Source: Promethearchaeota archaeon (GTDB lineage Archaea; Asgardarchaeota; Lokiarchaeia; Sigyniarchaeales; SOKP01). From it: 64,000 nt of DNA. The notes under the pieces were generated by a model. That model searched no databases. It saw only the letters and a program-made list of their open reading frames with translations, and was not told the origin of the DNA. The stretch's first letter is position 1. Every line of letters begins with the position of its first letter. The translations under genes and the position numbers were made by a program. Location of the stretch: assembly GCA_048938855.1 (NCBI GenBank), contig JBHLLT010000011.1, positions 1 through 64,000 of the forward strand. The letters are read 5' to 3'. This document shows positions 43,367 to 63,612 of the stretch, one piece after another.

Positions 43367-43753
43367 TTGGGAATAAATCAAGATGATATTGAAAAAATTA
43401 GTCCTCAAATTACTTTTATAACATCGAACGCAGATATTGAGGCGATTGCACTTGTATCTCAAGAAGGGTACCAAATAGCATTTAGTGCATTACCACATTA
43501 TCATGTTGATGGAGATCAATTTTGCGGACTCTCAAGTGCATTACTAATGACGGGAAGATCAACAATTCAAACATTATTTCAAGAAGATCTAAGTGAGATT
43601 ATTGTTCGAGCTCAAGATGGATATATTGTAATTACCAATGCAGGGAGATTAGTCATTGTGTGTGCTGGTACTATTATTGATACACTAATGAAGACTGTAA
43701 AGGTTATGAGAATTGCTGCTAAAAATCTTTATAAAATTTTTGAAGATCGTTAG
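43367..43753 (+). CDS. roadblock/LC7 (MglB-like) domain protein
   Basis: IEAIALVSQEGYQIA...LSEIIVRAQDGYIVITNAG. Confidence 0.9.
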   Translation: MGINQDDIEKISPQITFITSNADIEAIALVSQEGYQIAFSALPHYHVDGDQFCGLSSALLMTGRSTIQTLFQEDLSEIIVRAQDGYIVITNAGRLVIVCAGTIIDTLMKTVKVMRIAAKNLYKIFEDR

Positions 43754-54050: not shown

Positions 54051-55340
54051 GTGGCAAAAAAAAGAAAGCTTTCAGAAATCAGAAAGAAGGTTGAAGATGG
54101 GTCTGCTATTGTATTAACAGTCCAAGAGTTAATAGATCAGATAAGTGAAGGTGAGAAAATTAAATTTGAAGATGTAGATATTGTTACAACCGCTACAAAA
54201 GGACTTATGAGTGGAATTATGGGAATTTTCTCGTTTCGTCTTTCACCACCGAAAACTTTAAGAAAATTTACCGAAGTTGATATCAATGGAATTCCAGCTT
54301 TCCCTGGTCCGTGTCCAAATGAATATTTAGGTATAGTAGATTTAATTATATATGGAACTACTCAAAGTCGTACGAAAGATAACTATTGTGGTGGTTCCTT
54401 ATTTAGAGAAATTGTTGAAGGGAAACCTATAAATGTCTTAGCTAAGAGTGCTGAGGGTGAAACTATCGAAAAAATAATGAAATTAGAAGATATGCAATTT
54501 GCTAAATTAATAGGAACTAGACAAGCCATTAAGAATTACAATGCAATGATTAACTGTGAGAATTATCAAGTTAATACAATTTTCTCATGTCTTCCTTTTG
54601 AACCAGGTAAAACAGAACTTACATTTTCTGGATGTGGAGCACTTAATCCATTTCAAAATGATCCCAATTTTGCATCATTCGGAGTGGGTTCTCCGGTTCT
54701 TGTAAACGGAAATATAGGCCATCTTATGGGTCCTGGAACTCGTAATTATATTGAAAAACCTAATATGATGACAATCGCTCCTTTCGATGGAATGAAACCA
54801 GACTATATGGGAGCTTTTAAAACTTCTTATGGTTTAGAACCAATTTGTAGCTTAGCCTTACCGATTCCTATATTAAATGAAAATATTTTCAACAATTTAG
54901 CAAAATCTGATAAATTGGTTAAATTACCAATTTTAAGTCTAGTAGGACGGGAGAAGGTTGGAGAAATTACCTATGGCGATGTTTGGGACAATAACTATCT
55001 CATGAGGTTTGATCCAGATGCTTGTAAAAACTGCGAAGAATGCAAAGCTATTGATAAATGCCCTACTAATGCGTTTATTATAAAAGATAGCAGGATTTCT
55101 GCTATAGATCGCTCGCGTTGTTTCAATTGTGGCAATTGTACTCATATATGTCCCGATGCATTTGAATTAGATTTAAAAACAATTAAATTTGAAGGAGATA
55201 ATCTTCCAGTTGTTTTAAGACAATCAGATAGATATGGCGCAATAAAGTTAGCTGAACAACTAAAATCAATGATATTAAAAGGGAACTTTCCCTTAAGAAA
55301 ACCAATTAGTAAATTACAATTTGCAGAAGAAGTAAAATAA
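54051..55340 (+). CDS. methanogenesis marker 16-like metalloprotein (homocysteine-biosynthesis/DUF39 superfamily) with 2x[4Fe-4S] domain
   Basis: VDIVTTATKGLMSG, GPCPNE.LG.VD, SGCG.LNP.QND, CKNCEEC..CP and CFNCGNC..CP. Confidence 0.8.
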   Translation: MAKKRKLSEIRKKVEDGSAIVLTVQELIDQISEGEKIKFEDVDIVTTATKGLMSGIMGIFSFRLSPPKTLRKFTEVDINGIPAFPGPCPNEYLGIVDLIIYGTTQSRTKDNYCGGSLFREIVEGKPINVLAKSAEGETIEKIMKLEDMQFAKLIGTRQAIKNYNAMINCENYQVNTIFSCLPFEPGKTELTFSGCGALNPFQNDPNFASFGVGSPVLVNGNIGHLMGPGTRNYIEKPNMMTIAPFDGMKPDYMGAFKTSYGLEPICSLALPIPILNENIFNNLAKSDKLVKLPILSLVGREKVGEITYGDVWDNNYLMRFDPDACKNCEECKAIDKCPTNAFIIKDSRISAIDRSRCFNCGNCTHICPDAFELDLKTIKFEGDNLPVVLRQSDRYGAIKLAEQLKSMILKGNFPLRKPISKLQFAEEVK

Positions 55341-55431
55341 AAATAAGTGAATATCTTTAGGCAATAATTTTACATATTTGTTCATCTCAACTTATAAAAA
55401 ACTTTATTTTTAATTTGTAATAGGTTTAAAT

Positions 55432-57168
55432 ATGTCAAGTCAAATATTTGATGGTGGCGATTTAGTTGTTAAATGCCTCATAAAAGAGGGTATAACAAAG
55501 ATATTTGGATTAGTCGGTGGAGAATTATTAAGAATCTATGATGCTATTGAAAGATGGGGCAGAGACCAAGGTATAGACACAGTAATGGTTAGACATGAAC
55601 AAGCTGGAGGACATATGGCAGATGCTTGGGCCCGATCTACTGGAGAAATAGGAGTCTGTCTTGGAACGGTTGGTCCAGGAGTAACACACCTAGTACCTGC
55701 TGTAGCAGCAGCTAATGCGGACTCAATTCCTCTGCTTGTTATAGGGGCACAAATTGGTCGAATGTTTGAAGATACTGGAATTTTACAAGGAGGAATTGAT
55801 CAACTAGCCCTAATGAAGCCTATAACTAAAACTCAGATACAAGTTGAAGAACCTGAAGAAATTCCACGCGCAATTCAAAAAGCCATAAAAACTGCTCTAT
55901 CTGGAAGAAGAGGTCCAGTTTATTTAGAATTCAGGGAGACTGCATTGGTAAGGACTGCTACAAAAGAAGATTTCCAAAAGATTTTGGAACCGGAAAAATA
56001 TAGAGCATTATATAGACCTAGCGGTGCTCAAGTAGAAATTGAAAAAGCTGTTGATATTTTAAATAATGCTAAAAAACCATTAATGATAGCTGGTGGTGGA
56101 GTAATTGCTTCAGAAGCTTCAGAAGATATAAAAATTCTGTCAGAAACATATATGATACCAACAAGTACTACTATTAATGGCATCGGTTCGATTGGAAGAG
56201 ATAAAAAGACATTTTTAGATTCTTATTTAATTAATAATGCATATAGAACAGCAGCCTTACAAGCGGATGTAGTTTTATCATTTGGCTGTAAATGGGATTA
56301 CTCAATATTTTATGGGGCACCTCCGTTATGGAATCAAAATCAGAAAATTATTCAAGTTGATATTGATTCAAACGAAATTGGGAAAAATAGACCCATTGAA
56401 ATAGGTTTTGTCAGTGATTGCAAAGCTGTAATAAGACAATTATTAGATAAAATGGAAAAAACCTTACCAAAGAGTAAAATATCAGAATGGTCAGAATGGA
56501 ACACTTATTTACAAGAACTCTGTAAAAATCAATTAGATACAAATTTAAAAATCCTTAATTATAAGAAGTTACCAATGAAACCTGAACGGCTTATTTATGA
56601 AGTATTTGATTATATTCCTGAAGACGCACAAATTGTTCTTGATGGAGGGGATATTGTAGTTTTTTCTTATAAATTTATTAATTTAAAACCGCGACCTCCG
56701 CGGTCCACATTTTATCCAATATCTATGGGGCATTTAGGAGTAGGTATACCATATTCAATTGGAGTAAAAATGGCGAAACCCGAAAAACTTGTTATTTGTC
56801 TAACAGGAGATGGAAGTTTTCTCTTTAATGTTCAAGAGTTAGAAACTGCTGTAAGATTAAATTTACCAATAATAATAGTTATTGCAAATAATTGTGCATG
56901 GGGAATGATAAAGAGTAATCAGAAAAAAAGTGTAAATAAAAGATATTGTGATGTAGATTTTCCTCCAATTGATTATTCTAAAATTGCAGAAGGTTTTGGG
57001 TGTTATGGAGAAAAAATTGAAAATCCAGATGATATAAAACCAGCTTTAAAAAGAGCAATTGAGTCAAAAAAACCTGCAGTTTTAGATGTTAATATTGCAT
57101 TTGAAACACCTCCTCCAATGAGCTTATTAGCTCAATATAAAAAAAATAAAGGTTTATTTGGTAAATAA
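55432..57168 (+). CDS. thiamine-pyrophosphate enzyme (acetolactate synthase / 2-hydroxyacyl-CoA lyase-like)
   Basis: VRHEQAGGHMADAWAR, GPG, GDGSFLFN..ELET, NN.AWG. Confidence 0.9.
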   Translation: MSSQIFDGGDLVVKCLIKEGITKIFGLVGGELLRIYDAIERWGRDQGIDTVMVRHEQAGGHMADAWARSTGEIGVCLGTVGPGVTHLVPAVAAANADSIPLLVIGAQIGRMFEDTGILQGGIDQLALMKPITKTQIQVEEPEEIPRAIQKAIKTALSGRRGPVYLEFRETALVRTATKEDFQKILEPEKYRALYRPSGAQVEIEKAVDILNNAKKPLMIAGGGVIASEASEDIKILSETYMIPTSTTINGIGSIGRDKKTFLDSYLINNAYRTAALQADVVLSFGCKWDYSIFYGAPPLWNQNQKIIQVDIDSNEIGKNRPIEIGFVSDCKAVIRQLLDKMEKTLPKSKISEWSEWNTYLQELCKNQLDTNLKILNYKKLPMKPERLIYEVFDYIPEDAQIVLDGGDIVVFSYKFINLKPRPPRSTFYPISMGHLGVGIPYSIGVKMAKPEKLVICLTGDGSFLFNVQELETAVRLNLPIIIVIANNCAWGMIKSNQKKSVNKRYCDVDFPPIDYSKIAEGFGCYGEKIENPDDIKPALKRAIESKKPAVLDVNIAFETPPPMSLLAQYKKNKGLFGK

Positions 57169-57191
57169 TATCTATCTAAATGTGAACAAAT

Positions 57192-57998
57192 ATGTCAGAA
57201 GAAAACTTTTTAAAAGGAAAAGTCGCTTTAATAACAGGTGCAGGTGGAGCTGGATTTGGAAGAGAAATGGCAAAAGCATTTGCTAGCAAAGGAGCAGATT
57301 TAGTTATTAATGATATTAATGATGAAGGGTTAGATCAAACACGCGAAATTATTCTTAAAGATTATAACGCTGAAGTTTTTATAGCTAAAGCTGACATTTC
57401 TGATTCTGAACAAGTGAAAGAAATGGCTGAGAGTGTGCTTGAGAAATTCGATAATATTTTTTTATTAGTCAATAACGCAGGAATTGATGGTGGATTGTAT
57501 ACCACTTTAAAACAAAAAGAAGCGATGTATGATAAGATCATGGGGATTAACTTGAAAGGTGCTTGGAATGTTACTAAAGCCTTTTATAAACAAATGAGAA
57601 GACAAAAGCATTTTATTCCAATTGCAGGAAAAATAATCAATATTGTTTCATGTGCAGGTACAGCAAATGGTGCTAATCCCCAAGTAGGCATCTATAGTGT
57701 AAGTAAAGCTGGTTTATTAGCATTTACCAGATTATGGGCTCTTGAATTGGGTAAGAACAATATTACTGTTAATGCTATTTCTCCAGGAGTATTCTTAACA
57801 CCGATGTATAACAACGACCCTAAACTTATCAGAGATTTTTTGAAAACTAGAGGTGTAAGATTACCTATTGATAGAATTGGAGAAAAAAAAAGTGTTGCTG
57901 ATGCCGCGTTATTCCTAGCTTCACCAGGAGCAGACTATATCACTGGTCAAAATATAATAATTGATGGCGGAATGACAATTAGTGTAAATAAATTGTAA
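57192..57998 (+). CDS. short-chain dehydrogenase/reductase
   Basis: TGAGGAGFG, NNAG, YSVSK, ITGQ. Confidence 0.92.
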   Translation: MSEENFLKGKVALITGAGGAGFGREMAKAFASKGADLVINDINDEGLDQTREIILKDYNAEVFIAKADISDSEQVKEMAESVLEKFDNIFLLVNNAGIDGGLYTTLKQKEAMYDKIMGINLKGAWNVTKAFYKQMRRQKHFIPIAGKIINIVSCAGTANGANPQVGIYSVSKAGLLAFTRLWALELGKNNITVNAISPGVFLTPMYNNDPKLIRDFLKTRGVRLPIDRIGEKKSVADAALFLASPGADYITGQNIIIDGGMTISVNKL

Positions 57999-58042
57999 TT
58001 TTATCTAAATTTTTTAAAAAAAGATAATGCAAAGATATTAAT

Positions 58043-58627
58043 CTATTTACCGCGTCCTTTATTGGCTCTAATACTTGGCCGAGTTTTTTCAGAACCCCAT
58101 CCTCTTTTATGTAAACCTCGTGCTCTGTTTCCAGCAGAAGTTAGGCCCCGAGTTACTCTTTTTGTATGTTGTGGTTCAGATATCCATGTTATTTTTGGAT
58201 CTGCTTTAATAACGGGGTGGTTAGGATCTACTAAAATTGTTTCATAGTACCAATGTTTCCCATCAGCATATACTTTGTAACTATTTAAGACCTGCATGTT
58301 TGGATATTTTCTCTGAACTCGTTCCTCAGCGATCCATTGAAGGTTCTTCCCAGTAGTATATTTAGAAACACCCATTGCTCTTGGTTTTCTTCCTCGCTTC
58401 GGACGAACTTTATGCATTCCTCCTTTTCTTATTCTTGCTCGAACTATTATGTATCCCTGCTTTGCCTTATACCCTAATGTTCTAGCTCGATGAATATTTG
58501 TAGGTTTTTCAACTCTTTGGATTGATTTACCTTTACGATATTCAACTCCGCGATACCAGTGTGGTGTTTGAAATCCTTTTTCATGTTTCTCAAACGTTTC
58601 TTTCACATAACTATATCCTGACTTCAA
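58043..58627 (-). CDS. rpl15e: 50S ribosomal protein L15e
   Basis: ARTLGYKAKQG, IAEER, VLNSY, RGLTSAG. Confidence 0.97.
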   Translation of the reverse strand: MKSGYSYVKETFEKHEKGFQTPHWYRGVEYRKGKSIQRVEKPTNIHRARTLGYKAKQGYIIVRARIRKGGMHKVRPKRGRKPRAMGVSKYTTGKNLQWIAEERVQRKYPNMQVLNSYKVYADGKHWYYETILVDPNHPVIKADPKITWISEPQHTKRVTRGLTSAGNRARGLHKRGWGSEKTRPSIRANKGRGK

Positions 58628-59360: not shown

Positions 59361-59612
59361 TTAAATTCCTGCTAATCTCTTTCTAAAACGAATTCCTTTC
59401 TCTGTTAAAAAATATTCATCATTATTCTGTTGAATAAGACCTAAATCACGTAAAACAGGTATCCTCCCATTTATACAAGATATAGGTAAACCAGAAAATA
59501 ATTTTATAGTTTCATAGTTTTTAGCTCCATTATTAATAGCAACCAGTATTTCAATTCCCATATAACCTAAGAGATTTTTCAAATCCTCATAAGTTTCTTC
59601 GTTTTTGGGCAT
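59361..59612 (-). CDS. small winged-helix protein
   Basis: LRDLGLI...YFLTEKG wing motif. Confidence 0.75.
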   Translation of the reverse strand: MPKNEETYEDLKNLLGYMGIEILVAINNGAKNYETIKLFSGLPISCINGRIPVLRDLGLIQQNNDEYFLTEKGIRFRKRLAGI

Positions 59613-59731
59613 TTTTATCTAATCTTAAAAATATTATTTTCTGGGAGTTACTTTTTTTTAGAATTTCTGCTTTTTTTATTTTTTGCTGATCCTTCACTTT
59701 CATTTACTTTTTTTTAATCTGCAATTACGGG

Positions 59732-60853
59732 TTAAGATTCTTTTGGTAGTAGTTTTCTCATCCATTCCGGAAATGCTGTTGTTATTTGCAAATTAGTTTT
59801 TAAAACAATATATGTCTCGCCATTGTAGTTTAATTCTTCAATTACATCAAAACTTTTCAGGAAATCTATATTTTCCATTAAAGAATCTAAAGATTTTTTA
59901 GAAATTTTTTTTGGCAATTTATCTTTTGATATCAAACCGTTTCTTAATTCTGAAAGAATATTATATTTTTTTGGATCCGCCATAACTTGATATAATGTAA
60001 AAGCATCTTCCTTAATTTGCTCCCGGGTTTTCTTTTCATATTCACTAAAATATTCTTGCACTTTTGGGAGGAGTATTTCAATCAATTCTGGTTTATCATC
60101 AATATATTCAATAATACTATCTGGAGGTATTCTTTCAGCATTTACTTCTTTTACAAGAAGTACATACTTTTCAACTAATCCTATTTGATTAATGAAAATA
60201 AATTGTCGTTCATCTAGGATTTCAATAATTTCATTAAACTCTTTTTCTGGAAAATTCTCAACAAACCATTCTCTAAGGCCTTCTAATAAGATAGGACCTT
60301 CAGATAACTTCTCTAATGTCATAAAAATGTGTTTATCATTTAATAAGATAGCAATTTCTTCTTCTTCGGTTTTTTCCCTTGTATCCTCAATAATTAACCA
60401 GTATAGATTATCTACCCAGACTTTAATTAAAGCTTCATTTTTCCGGATACTCTCCTGATCTTCTTCCTCAAAATTATTTATATCATTTATATAAAATGCA
60501 GTATAAATTTCTTCATTTGATTGTAATTGTTCAGAAAATTCTGTACATAAAATTGAGATTTTTTCTTCATCTTCAGTAGGAATTTGCTGGTCAATAATTG
60601 TTGAAACCATCAGCATTTCTTTGTTTCCTCTAGCCCAATCAGAATGGATCTCGAAATAATAATTTAATGATTTAAGATTTTCAAAAGAATGTGTAAAAAA
60701 ACCTTCACTAAATTGCTGATCCATAATATTAGCTATTTTAAGAGATAATTCTTTTTCCAACGTATCCGCTGGGTAAGAATAAAAAACAATTGGACCAATT
60801 TTACGATGAAAGTATGATAAAGTAACGATGGTTTTCAATAAATGGATCTCCAT
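59732..60853 (-). CDS. longin/uDENN (folliculin/NPRL2-like) domain protein
   Basis: LSYFHRKIGP..FYSYP longin start, YFEIHSDWARG motif, wHTH-like C-terminal segments. Confidence 0.7.
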   Translation of the reverse strand: MEIHLLKTIVTLSYFHRKIGPIVFYSYPADTLEKELSLKIANIMDQQFSEGFFTHSFENLKSLNYYFEIHSDWARGNKEMLMVSTIIDQQIPTEDEEKISILCTEFSEQLQSNEEIYTAFYINDINNFEEEDQESIRKNEALIKVWVDNLYWLIIEDTREKTEEEEIAILLNDKHIFMTLEKLSEGPILLEGLREWFVENFPEKEFNEIIEILDERQFIFINQIGLVEKYVLLVKEVNAERIPPDSIIEYIDDKPELIEILLPKVQEYFSEYEKKTREQIKEDAFTLYQVMADPKKYNILSELRNGLISKDKLPKKISKKSLDSLMENIDFLKSFDVIEELNYNGETYIVLKTNLQITTAFPEWMRKLLPKES

Positions 60854-61044
60854 TAAGATTTAATTATTAAAATTGAAGAACAGCTTTTTTTATCTATTAC
60901 CTAGAAAAAATTAATATTGAAGATTATATATTATTAAAGATAAATAAATTTATCTTAACTCAACATCTAATATCATAGAGTAATTAATTTTAGCAAATAG
61001 TATAAAAAATTTTATGGAATTTAAGACAAAATCAAAATCTAAAA

Positions 61045-61800
61045 ATGAGCCCTATAAAATTAATCGGATTTGACTTGGATGATTGTTTATTTGATTCAAC
61101 TGGTTTATCTGAGAAAGCAAGAATTAAAGGTCTCGATGCAATGATTAGATTGGGATTAGATATTGATAAAGAGAATGCTGTTCGGATTTTAAGGGAAATA
61201 GTGAATGAATATGGCTCAAATTCCTCAAAACATTACAATTATTTCATAAGAAGATTAAATCAAATGGAGGATAGTATTAAAAATATTTCCTATAATGATA
61301 GTTATAAATATATAGCAGCAGCAGTCATGGCATATCATACAGAAAAGGTAAATTCTATAAAACTTTATGAGGACGTAGAAGAGAATTTGAATAAATTAAA
61401 AGAACTCTCAATAAAAACAGTCATTATAACTGATGGAATTCCGATAAAGCAATATGAGAAAATTTTAAGACTTAATATTGATAAATTAATTGATTTAGTA
61501 GTTATATCCGATGAAATTGGTATAAAAAAGCCCAACCCAGAATTATTTAATTATTGTTTGAAAAAATTTGGAGTTAATGGCCGAGAGACCATATATGTTG
61601 GAGATCGTATTGATATGGACATAATTCCAGCTAATTTAAACGATATATATAGTGTTTATGTACATCGTGGAGGTAAATATGATAGTTATAAAGCAAATCT
61701 TTCTATTCAAGGAGATTTTCAGCCAGATTATGAGATAACAAATTTAAGCGAATTATTTAATATAATCCAAGAGATTAACGCGAAAGAAAAAAGTTTATAG
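61045..61800 (+). CDS. HAD-superfamily hydrolase
   Basis: FDLDDCL, IITDG, KKPNP, YVGDR..DI. Confidence 0.92.
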   Translation: MSPIKLIGFDLDDCLFDSTGLSEKARIKGLDAMIRLGLDIDKENAVRILREIVNEYGSNSSKHYNYFIRRLNQMEDSIKNISYNDSYKYIAAAVMAYHTEKVNSIKLYEDVEENLNKLKELSIKTVIITDGIPIKQYEKILRLNIDKLIDLVVISDEIGIKKPNPELFNYCLKKFGVNGRETIYVGDRIDMDIIPANLNDIYSVYVHRGGKYDSYKANLSIQGDFQPDYEITNLSELFNIIQEINAKEKSL

Positions 61801-61808
61801 TATTTAAA

Positions 61809-62627
61809 ATGAGAGTCGCATGTATTCAACCCGAATTATTTGAAAATAGAGAGAAATGCTATAAAGAAATAGAAAATATTTTAAAAAAATTGTTAGAAAC
61901 ACATAAAAATTGTGAAATAATATGCCTTCCAGAAAGATGGGTGCCTTATTTTAGAGACTTAAATCAAAATTTTCAAGAACAAAGGGGAAATGACTATACC
62001 TTTATTAAAAATTTGGCTAAAGATTATAATCTCAAAGTGATATCAGGTGCAATTTGGGAGAAACGGACCAATTCAAAAAAACCTGCAATAACATGTTATT
62101 TTTTTGATGAAAATGGTGAAGAAATTGGAAGACAAGATAAAATTCACTTATATTCTTATGAACGTGAACATTTTGAACCTGGTAAGGAATTACAGATATT
62201 TAAATTACGAAATTCATATTGCTTCACAATCCTTATTTGTTTTGATATGGCATTTTTTGAAACTCCTAGATTGGCTGTAGAAAATGGTACTGACCTTTTA
62301 TTTTCACCTACTCAAATCAGGGAAGATGGGATGTTAAACTGGCACGTATATCTACAAGCGCGTGCTTTAGAGAATCGAGTACCCATTGTGGCTTGTAATA
62401 CCTTTGGTTCTTATTTGAAAAGAAATTTTGTAGGTAATAGTAAAATAATTTCTTTTTATAAAGGAAATATATCTCCATCTAAACTAAAAATTACTGAAGC
62501 CCCTAAAGGTAAAAGTGGTTTTGCCTTTGATGATTTAGATTTAACCTTCCCTAGAAAATTGAGAGAAATTCGTTTTAAAGAAAGAATCGATAAAACCAAA
62601 ATCAAAATTAATATAATTAGTACATAA
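61809..62627 (+). CDS. carbon-nitrogen hydrolase (nitrilase family)
   Basis: LPE, KIHL, ICFD catalytic E-K-C triad; ARALEN. Confidence 0.9.
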   Translation: MRVACIQPELFENREKCYKEIENILKKLLETHKNCEIICLPERWVPYFRDLNQNFQEQRGNDYTFIKNLAKDYNLKVISGAIWEKRTNSKKPAITCYFFDENGEEIGRQDKIHLYSYEREHFEPGKELQIFKLRNSYCFTILICFDMAFFETPRLAVENGTDLLFSPTQIREDGMLNWHVYLQARALENRVPIVACNTFGSYLKRNFVGNSKIISFYKGNISPSKLKITEAPKGKSGFAFDDLDLTFPRKLREIRFKERIDKTKIKINIIST

Positions 62628-62655
62628 GTAAAATCATTAAGATCCTTAAAATGAT

Positions 62656-63612
62656 ATGAGTGAATCAAAATATTTTAAAAAAATACTATTCTGTGGTTTG
62701 GAGAGTGGTGGAAAGACATCAATTTTATTGTTATTAGATAAAAAATTTAGTTTATTAGCCTCAGTTAAACCAACTATAAAAGCTAAAAGAACCTTTCATA
62801 CGAATTCATTATTAGGCACCACTATTGTTCGTTGGGATTTAGGTGGCCAAAAAGGTTATAGGAAAGTATATTTGGGTGATAAAAGTAAGTACTTTACTGA
62901 AATGCAATCAATATTTTATGTTATAGATATCCAAGCACCAAAAAAATTTGAGGAAGCTCTAACTTTCCTTAAGGATATTATAAATATCACTTCAGAATCG
63001 CGTCCTGAGAACTTTCAACTCTTAATTCTCCTCCATAAGTGCGATCCAGATATTAAAAATAAGAAAAATATCATTATTAACATCAAATTCTTAGAAAATG
63101 AAATTAAATCTATTTTAAAAGAAGTGAAATATTCTATTTTAAAAACTTCTATTTATGATGAACCAAGTTTATTAAAGGCTTTTTCTGATGGTGTTTTTTA
63201 TGCTACTCATCGATCAAAGATGTTTCAAACCTTATTAAAAGATTATATGGGCAAAACTTACAATAGCTCTACACTTTTATTAGATCAGAATTGTTTTATA
63301 ATCGCTAGTAGAAGTACTTATCAAGCTTATCAAGAAATTTGCGAAGCGATAGCCCCGAGATTAACTCAAGCTTTGGAAAAATTAGAAGAATGGGATATTA
63401 ACACAATTGACATTGTAACAAATATTGAATTTCCTGAAAAACAGTCAGAGTCTCAAAAAGAAGGGATTATTTTCTTAAGAAAACTAGATATTGAAGATAC
63501 TAGACTATATCTAGTTGCACTGTGTTTGAATAAGAATGTGAAGATCAAATCCTATGAATATTTACCGTTATTGGCAGAAAATTTAAAGAATTTATTAGAG
63601 GCATTTGATTAA
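62656..63612 (+). CDS. Rag/Gtr-like small GTPase with C-terminal roadblock-like domain
   Basis: GLESGGKTS, WDLGGQ, HKCD, TSIYDEPSLLKAFS; about 130-aa C-terminal domain with LLDQNCFIIAS. Confidence 0.8.
   Translation: MSESKYFKKILFCGLESGGKTSILLLLDKKFSLLASVKPTIKAKRTFHTNSLLGTTIVRWDLGGQKGYRKVYLGDKSKYFTEMQSIFYVIDIQAPKKFEEALTFLKDIINITSESRPENFQLLILLHKCDPDIKNKKNIIINIKFLENEIKSILKEVKYSILKTSIYDEPSLLKAFSDGVFYATHRSKMFQTLLKDYMGKTYNSSTLLLDQNCFIIASRSTYQAYQEICEAIAPRLTQALEKLEEWDINTIDIVTNIEFPEKQSESQKEGIIFLRKLDIEDTRLYLVALCLNKNVKIKSYEYLPLLAENLKNLLEAFD

Follow-up and report, generated by a model that had tools for sequence, protein, structure and literature searches.

A longin protein resembling NPRL2 and folliculin encoded beside a Rag-like GTPase in a Promethearchaeota genome: a candidate GTPase-activating protein and its presumed partner

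We analysed a stretch of 64,000 nucleotides of a Promethearchaeota archaeon (contig JBHLLT010000011.1, here contig C45 of a 3.95-Mb genome with a completeness of 97%; hereafter the window), and focused on two neighbouring genes close to its end, one coding for a protein of 373 amino acids, P0001, and the other for a small GTPase of the Rag/Gtr family, P0002. Our results show that P0001 carries the Gly-Pro motif and the loop arginine of the longin domains of NPRL2 and folliculin (FLCN), on what its structural model leaves as a certain longin fold, and that the two genes have been kept together across the order through several rearrangements. We propose that P0001 represents the NPRL2/folliculin/SMCR8 class of longins in Asgard archaea and that it is most likely a GTPase-activating protein (GAP) that binds its neighbour P0002 and uses Arg75 as an arginine finger, a reading to which we give about an even chance of being right. 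The parts of both proteins on which the argument turns are the following (pI, isoelectric point).

59732..60853, minus strand: longin protein P0001 (NPRL2/folliculin type), 373 amino acids; open reading frame (ORF)
60374..60838, minus strand: longin domain (residues ~6-112) and two long helices (within residues 113-160); AlphaFold2 secondary structure
60791..60796, minus strand: Gly20-Pro21, the 'GP motif', opening strand beta2 (residues 20-27); model, hhalign and conservation
60629..60631, minus strand: Arg75, candidate arginine finger in the beta4-beta5 loop (SDWARGN); model and conservation
60119..60373, minus strand: first winged-helix domain (residues ~161-245), acidic, pI 4.4; models, with winged-helix matches at Z 7-8.3
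59768..60025, minus strand: second winged-helix domain (residues ~277-362), ArsR/SmtB-like; profile, Foldseek and VIA matches
62656..63612, plus strand: Rag/Gtr-family small GTPase P0002, 318 amino acids, with a C-terminal extension; Pfam Gtr1_RagA E 4.2e-23
62695-62721, plus strand: P-loop GLESGGKTS of P0002; sequence
62833-62850, plus strand: WDLGGQ motif of P0002; sequence
63034-63045, plus strand: HKCD motif of P0002; sequence
63145-63159, plus strand: TSIYD motif of P0002; sequence

The AlphaFold2 model of P0001, computed from an alignment of 50 sequences, has a predicted local distance difference test score (pLDDT) of 92.1 and starts with a domain of the order beta-beta-alpha-beta-beta-beta-alpha (residues 8-112), after which come two long helices (116-158) and two winged helices (163-242 and 277-360). 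In a Foldseek comparison of this model with the PDB, chains of NPRL2 came out on top (E 1.1e-5 to 1.8e-4), in full-length alignments of 287-406 columns, and were followed by yeast Npr2, NPRL3, chains of the folliculin-FNIP2 complex and the crystal structure of a Lokiarchaeal longin. Upon VIA re-alignment the Lokiarchaeal longin 8yqg scored Z 13.7 and folliculin, the top eukaryotic chain, Z 13.1-13.6, with model residues 7-159 lying on FLCN residues 2-268 (the identities of the FLCN chains in this list, as well as FLCN residues 152-179, were checked against the PDB sequence). NPRL3 (Z 12.8-12.9), NPRL2 (Z 12.0-12.6; 193 residues aligned, model 5-224 on chain 5-238, at Z 12.0), Npr2 (Z 11.3-11.4) and Lst4 (Z 11.3) came next, then the SNARE longins Ykt6, VAMP7 and Sec22b (Z 10.0-10.7) and finally longins of the guanine nucleotide exchange factor (GEF) type, that is, those of DENND1, TRAPP and Fuzzy-Inturned (Z 8-9.6). 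With such a model the longin fold of P0001 is certain, and its preference for the longins of GAP complexes over generic ones is consistent but modest. The preliminary description of this DNA had proposed a longin fold of the folliculin/NPRL2 kind, and both the Foldseek ranking and the VIA scores of the model bear this out. A DENN domain was not found after the longin domain: the FLCN alignments stop at model residue 157-159, and the C-terminal half of the protein is made of winged helices.

The GP motif of P0001 lies within LSYFHRKIGPIVFYSYP, which reads F15-x4-G20-P21-x6-P28 as counted on the sequence; the signature had been described beforehand as F-x3-GP-x5-P, so that the motif was rightly recognised but each of its spacings was off by one. 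The likeness that had been drawn between the segment YFEIHSDWARG of P0001 and FFIKDSLARG of folliculin stands: the first is present and holds R75, and the second, with R164, was confirmed on the PDB sequence of FLCN. In the AlphaFold2 model R75 is found in a loop (residues 71-77) flanked by strands 60-70 and 78-87. Conservation was read from a set of 74 P0001 orthologues and paralogues taken from genomes, where G20 is present in all 74, P21 in 73 and R75 also in 73. Alignment of profiles by hhalign places residues 10-36 of P0001 on residues 10-36 of human NPRL2 (37% identity, pairwise E 7.7e-4), with G20-P21 on G20-P21. Residues 7-83 of human NPRL2, in its PDB sequence, include F15, H16, G20, P21, Y25, P28, D30 and, within KKYSRN, R78, and the VIA ranges given above (5-224 on 5-238) keep the numbering of both proteins in register around R75 and R78. 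Conservation of arginine and GP motif in the equivalent loop is supported by the relatives, by hhalign and by the placement in the model. In the standard order of the longin sheet, the beta1-beta2 and beta4-beta5 hairpin loops are at the same sheet end, and because of this the GP motif and R75 should be neighbours in space. A recent report describes a Gly-Pro motif that opens strand beta2 and neighbours the arginine finger as specific to the GAP-type longins FLCN, NPRL2, SMCR8 and C9orf72, and the motif together with an arginine in that loop as absent from FNIP2, NPRL3, adaptins, TRAPP subunits and DENND proteins (PMC12290439).

P0001 is strongly conserved and its relatives are numerous. A word-indexed search gave 562 matches, the best 120 of which are 77-100% identical, and an exhaustive search of cluster representatives gave 382 relatives, some of them sharing only the N-terminal domain within other architectures; a related longin domain is found in P0241, a fusion of longin, Arf GTPase, PAS, GAF and kinase. 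An ESM Atlas look-up returned Promethearchaeota clusters only, without names. P0001 had no match among the Pfam and NCBIfam models, and neither phmmer with P0001 nor the 50-sequence profile reached NPRL2 or FLCN among the PDB sequences, the profile yielding only weak ArsR/HlyU matches to the second winged helix. The sole sub-threshold Pfam hints among P0001 and its 50 relatives were to Afi1 (8 members) and Folliculin (2 members).

As for the ends of the protein, the true start codon of P0001 is probably codon 6 or 7 of the annotated ORF. The stop codon of the gene (TAA, 59732-59734) occupies the position of a Glu in the homologues (...LLPKES-E-PVIAD-K...), and a second in-frame TAA (59714-59716) stands in place of a Lys (window 59648-59734, minus strand). 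The lysine-rich tail of the homologues, of ~30 amino acids, is still discernible past these stops (PVIAD..., KSRNSKKK). Judging from these letters, the tail of P0001 looks recently truncated and probably dispensable, unless it reflects a sequencing or read-through issue.

In the C-terminal half, the second winged helix has a HlyU profile match at E 0.007, a Foldseek match to SrnR/ArsR at E 2e-3 and a VIA match to SmtB at Z 7.3. The C-termini of NPRL2 and NPRL3 consist of two or more repeated winged helix-turn-helix domains (Levine et al., PMC3747258), and for this reason the layout of P0001 is that of NPRL2. At the level of the models, this is a shared architecture, and we claim no specific homology for this half. 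Winged helices also bring to mind a transcription regulator acting on the spacer shared with the divergent genes, with the longin domain as a sensor or as an input that binds a GTPase. Such a function is in line with the divergent orientation of the gene beside the genes to be regulated, a classical layout for local regulators, and with the resemblance of the second winged helix to ArsR/SmtB repressors. However, P0001 is strongly acidic (pI 4.6 overall; 4.4 and 6.5 for the first and second winged helices), which argues against DNA binding; in one genus (g9) the longin gene is in tandem with its neighbour, a gene for a HAD-superfamily phosphatase, and not divergent; and the winged helices of NPRL2 and NPRL3 lie inside a protein complex. 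We consider a regulator of this kind highly improbable.

The candidate partner is a genuine GTPase of the Rag/Gtr family, nearer in sequence to Rag than to Arf. P0002 matches the Pfam model Gtr1_RagA with 82.4 bits (cut-off 22) over profile positions 1-225 of 232, and the hallmarks that had been ascribed to it, HKCD, TSIYD and LLKAFS, are all in place, together with a switch I threonine in P39-T40. Its P-loop, GLESGGKTS, resembles the Arf pattern, GLDxxGKT. A profile of the family (19 sequences) run against the PDB found the Lokiarchaeal Rag-like structures 8yl2 (1.5e-59) and 8zla (9.5e-45), then RagA (1.8e-26), Gtr1 (2e-23), RagC (6e-14) and Arl3 (1.5e-11). At 318 amino acids, P0002 is about as long as the full-length PDB chains of RagA (313) and Gtr1 (310). 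For the roadblock-like domain that had been placed at its C-terminus (residues ~185-318) the support is indirect: this length, a pattern of alpha-beta-beta-alpha-beta-beta-beta-alpha read by eye and, from a language-model Atlas look-up, a weak pointer towards C-terminal fragments of Rag proteins (score 0.85). Residues 191-318 alone had no match among PDB sequences. Small-GTPase matches number 48 in the genome, ~11 of them full-length and Rag-like.

A roadblock gene at position 43367 had been named in connection with the pair (43367-43753, plus strand: stand-alone roadblock/LC7 protein; Pfam Robl_LC7 E 6.8e-8). The gene is real but stands 16 kb from the pair; no tie to it was found, and hhalign of the C-terminus of P0002 against its product gave no link.

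Linkage between the longin and the GTPase genes was scored in 61 genomes of the order, adjacency being defined as a distance within 3 kb on one contig. A longin orthologue is present in 55 of the 61 genomes, a P0002 orthologue in 26 and both in 25. Where both genes exist they lie within 3 kb of each other in 23 genomes, are undecided at contig ends in 2 and are apart in none. In agreement with this, loci fetched around distant P0002 orthologues (31-41% identity) have a longin orthologue (36-45%) next door in almost all cases. The chance of finding a Rag-like gene within 3 kb of a given gene is below 2% (11 x 6 kb / 3.95 Mb = 1.7%), and the proximity of longin and GTPase genes is more than chance. 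The sampled genomes are related and the counts are not independent events; hence, it is the rearrangements, and not the raw counts, that make the linkage informative. Four gene orders were seen, in four families, which are given here with <> as the divergent junction.

Longin <> GTPase: family f29
Longin <> GTPase-HAD: family f29
Longin <> HAD-GTPase: family f2
Longin <> HAD-hydrolase-GTPase: families f1 and f28, including the window

The neighbourhood is thus conserved across the order through several rearrangements (23 of the 25 genomes), as the preliminary description had suggested should be checked. Two other ideas on linkage were discarded. From 12 loci in the family of the window and its nearest neighbour, in which the longin-HAD pair was found everywhere and the GTPase in only two, the linkage to the GTPase appeared confined to three genera, a view overturned by the loci of the distant P0002 orthologues; P0002 orthologues were not found in genera g2-g5. 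Pairwise distances of the longin and GTPase proteins correlate (r = 0.93), and we rejected this as evidence of interaction: it fits joint vertical descent only.

In the window itself the genes around the pair are arranged as follows.

60854..61044, no strand: AT-rich spacer of 191 bp separating the longin gene from the divergent HAD-hydrolase-GTPase run; coordinates and sequence
61045..61800, plus strand: HAD-superfamily phosphatase P0003, TIGR02253 subfamily; NCBIfam 180.8 bits against a cut-off of 169.75, and Pfam HAD
61809..62627, plus strand: carbon-nitrogen hydrolase P0004 (nitrilase superfamily); Pfam CN_hydrolase E 8e-31
59361..59612, minus strand: small winged-helix protein of 83 amino acids, HTH_45; Pfam HTH_45 E 1.4e-7

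The phosphatase, hydrolase and GTPase genes are all divergent from the longin gene and are separated from each other by 8 and 28 bp, and the 191-bp spacer is presumed to be a shared promoter region. The distance of ~1.8 kb given earlier for the longin and GTPase genes is right when measured from the start of one to the start of the other. P0004 carries the motifs of a Glu-Lys-Cys triad (LPERW, DKIHLY and ICFD). The phosphatase is the steadiest neighbour of the longin gene, steadier than the GTPase: in 21 of the 23 orthologous loci examined its gene is in the longin cluster, adjoining either the longin gene or an intervening GTPase gene. Among the loci examined, the carbon-nitrogen hydrolase belongs to the cluster in two families, f1 and f28, and at a single f2 locus (L031). 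The link to two metabolite hydrolases that had been put forward therefore holds broadly for the phosphatase, but for the nitrilase only within those limits. Because the GTPase gene is co-oriented and nearly contiguous with both enzyme genes, the putative switch may be tied to a metabolic process, and the layout suggests that the whole run is co-expressed, GTPase with metabolite-handling enzymes.

The same data can be looked at the other way round, with adjacency as mere inherited gene order and no direct functional tie between the two: the GTPases on which P0001 acts, if there are any, would be different ones, and the Rag-like gene would simply travel along, as a passenger, with the phosphatase operon. 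Indeed, it is the phosphatase that is the steadier neighbour (21/23 loci), the GTPase has been lost from the locus in many genera where the longin gene is still strongly constrained, GTPase genes of Loki genomes are generally not in operons with longin genes (PMC10933270), and the adjacency of a P0001 paralogue and a Rab-like gene on another contig (C91, described below) is not conserved. On the other hand, the pair has been kept through at least four arrangements, including direct divergent adjacency without the phosphatase gene between them in family f29, and none of the 25 genomes with both genes was seen to have them apart. We hold a passenger GTPase to be improbable.

We come back to the proposal that P0001 is an arginine-finger GAP for P0002. 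The longin face of P0001 would contact P0002-GTP, and the arginine of the beta4-beta5 loop, Arg75, beside the GP motif, would be inserted into the nucleotide pocket of P0002 and stimulate GTP hydrolysis. There is precedent for this chemistry in eukaryotes: Arg78 of NPRL2 acts on RagA, and Arg164 of folliculin acts on RagC. P0001 might act as a dimer or with a paralogue, and its acidic winged helices would probably be modules of protein-protein assembly and not of DNA binding. In lineages without P0002, P0001 presumably serves other Rag-like or Arf-like GTPases. Related longin domains that are fused to Arf-like GTPases (as in P0241), or that are encoded beside Rag-like and Arf-like genes elsewhere in the genome, support this proposal.

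Several of our observations weigh against it. The structural margin over generic longins is of 2-3 Z units only in VIA. The Pfam NPR2 model has no match at E up to 1 in P0001 and its 50 relatives, and P0001 is likewise unmatched by the Folliculin model. The C-terminal half, modelled alone (pLDDT 89.8), finds generic winged helices only (ArsR/SmtB and MecI at Z 7-8.3; best Foldseek E 2e-3), and NPRL2 and NPRL3 are absent from its Foldseek and wide VIA match lists. Of the ~11 Rag-like paralogues that the genome has, P0002 is not the one that scores best as a Rag. Thirty of the 55 longin-bearing genomes have no P0002 orthologue while R75 is intact and the phosphatase gene is usually kept, and the loci of genera g2, g3, g4, g5, g6, g9 and g10 have no GTPase of any kind within ~8 kb. 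This persistence of the longin gene with its R75 implies that the pairing is not obligatory, and that P0001 has either other clients or another role.

One such role would be that of a platform, exchange factor, effector or scaffold for Rag-like or other small GTPases, which is how most longin and roadblock dimers work, with an arginine that is structural or takes part in binding and is not catalytic. Longin and roadblock platforms act mainly as GEFs (PMC10933270), the longin fold of P0001 does match the GEF-type longins mentioned above at Z 8-9.6, and a function of this kind would agree with its persistence in the 30 genomes devoid of P0002. Yet the best structural matches are longins of GAP complexes, and the GP motif and loop arginine, near-invariant in the relatives of P0001, are specific to the GAP type according to PMC12290439. 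We regard this alternative as unlikely.

A stronger form of the GAP proposal is that the two proteins have been a true GAP-substrate pair since the ancestor of the order, a minimal GATOR1-Rag core without TOR that would be co-transcribed with the phosphatase (and in some families with the carbon-nitrogen hydrolase) and would read or control a specific metabolite pool, which would make it an instance of pre-eukaryotic nutrient-linked Rag signalling. Stated in full, this scenario seems to us rather unlikely.

Other genes of the window and of the genome are worth recording. The HTH_45 gene (59361-59612) shares the strand of the longin gene and follows it after 120 bp, and most orthologous loci have it nearby; the two may be transcribed together, and the HTH_45 protein is at most a putative part of the system. 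Further out is a conserved flank (54051-58627) that is syntenic across the family and codes for a HcyBio homocysteine-biosynthesis enzyme with a ferredoxin domain, a thiamine-pyrophosphate enzyme of the acetolactate-synthase type, a short-chain dehydrogenase, ribosomal protein L15e and a DUF2095 protein. The G+C content of the window is ~27% overall and 21-34% across 2-kb bins, and the closest relatives of its proteins come from metagenome bins that for the most part bear the names Lokiarchaeia or Promethearchaeota.

Longin and GTPase genes are also found near each other on other contigs. Contig C43 (95524-99162) has, within 4 kb, a Rag-like GTPase (304 amino acids), a protein of 351 amino acids with an N-terminal extension and an Arf-like GTPase domain and, convergent, a longin-PAS-GAF protein of 552 amino acids. 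On contig C91 (L045:2757-4376) a gene for a Rab-like GTPase of 204 amino acids is followed, after 127 bp, by a longin paralogue that keeps the GP motif and the arginine, and whose ORF enters a gap of unknown bases; we rejected this adjacency as evidence, since it is absent from the orthologous loci of four related genomes. Contig C74 (L043:14019-18784 and L044:2955-8449) contains two tandem units, each made of a giant protein (1219 and 1460 amino acids), with weak Ig-like or macroglobulin-like matches, and then a protein of 367-370 amino acids that resembles only the winged-helix half of P0001 (22-24% identity). The same contig carries two genes for Rag-like GTPases, 6 to 21 kb upstream.

Among known systems, the closest likeness is to NPRL2/Npr2, the catalytic subunit of GATOR1/SEACIT and the GAP for RagA/B and Gtr1. 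Both proteins begin with a longin domain and continue with repeated winged helices, and both have a size of ~370-380 amino acids, an FH...GP...Y..P.D motif with identical numbering (F15, H16, G20, P21, Y25, P28, D30) and an arginine in the beta4-beta5 loop (R75 in P0001, R78 in NPRL2); in addition, the gene next to that of P0001 codes for a GTPase of the Rag family in several gene orders of the locus or lies close by, as in the window. They differ in that P0001 is unmatched by Pfam NPR2 and that its C-terminal half, taken alone, is of generic winged helices. No NPRL3-like or DEPDC5-like partner was identified, DEPDC5 not having been searched for; paralogues of P0001 do exist, such as the C91 copy with its GP motif and arginine. 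The host organism has, to our knowledge, no known TOR. With folliculin/Lst7, the GAP for RagC/D that acts through Arg164, P0001 has in common the F.I....ARG segment and the GP motif, whereas FLCN has a C-terminal DENN domain in place of the winged helices and works with FNIP. On the GTPase side, Asgard Rag-like GTPases have already been described (PMC10933270), and structures of Loki Rags are available (PDB 8YL2 and 8ZLA/9M28, 'LokiRagM'). P0002 shares with RagA/Gtr1 and with these structures a near end-to-end Gtr1_RagA match, HKxD, TSI[WY]D and its length (318 amino acids, 313 in RagA), but its identity to the Loki Rag 8YL2 is only moderate. MglA-MglB offers a prokaryotic parallel, a small GTPase with a regulator of the roadblock/longin superfamily encoded nearby; MglB, however, forms roadblock homodimers that lack an FLCN/NPRL2-type arginine finger, and the GTPase belongs to another family.

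The class of protein to which P0001 would belong is already published. According to Liu et al. (bioRxiv 10.1101/2020.10.19.343400), Thor genomes and a few genomes of Loki encode Asgard NPRL2-like proteins with a C-terminus of the NPRL2 type, and longin domains resembling that of NPRL2 also occur fused to signalling modules; longins with the GP motif and the arginine finger have been reported in Asgard archaea as well (PMC12290439, Traffic 2025), and this last report does not decide between Arf-related and Rag/Gtr GTPases as clients of the Asgard GAP-type longins. What the locus contributes is the assignment of a candidate partner, which is useful and testable: we found no published report, in the searchable literature, of a fixed pairing in which these longin orthologues go with one group of Rag-like orthologues and with a HAD phosphatase. 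If P0001 does not act as a GAP, the locus is one more of many in which Asgard archaea have longin and GTPase genes. If it does, the arginine-finger longin mechanism of GATOR1 and folliculin would predate eukaryotes, and the recurring phosphatase would point to what the switch responds to. In comparison with the longins of these two reports, which are of the same class and have the same arrangement of GP motif and arginine as P0001, and which are given no fixed GTPase partner in the portions consulted, the longin is here linked to a single Rag-like orthologue group across an order. Kept together through four rearrangements, P0001 and P0002 (373 and 318 amino acids) are a concrete, small and soluble candidate pair for the question of clients that PMC12290439 poses.

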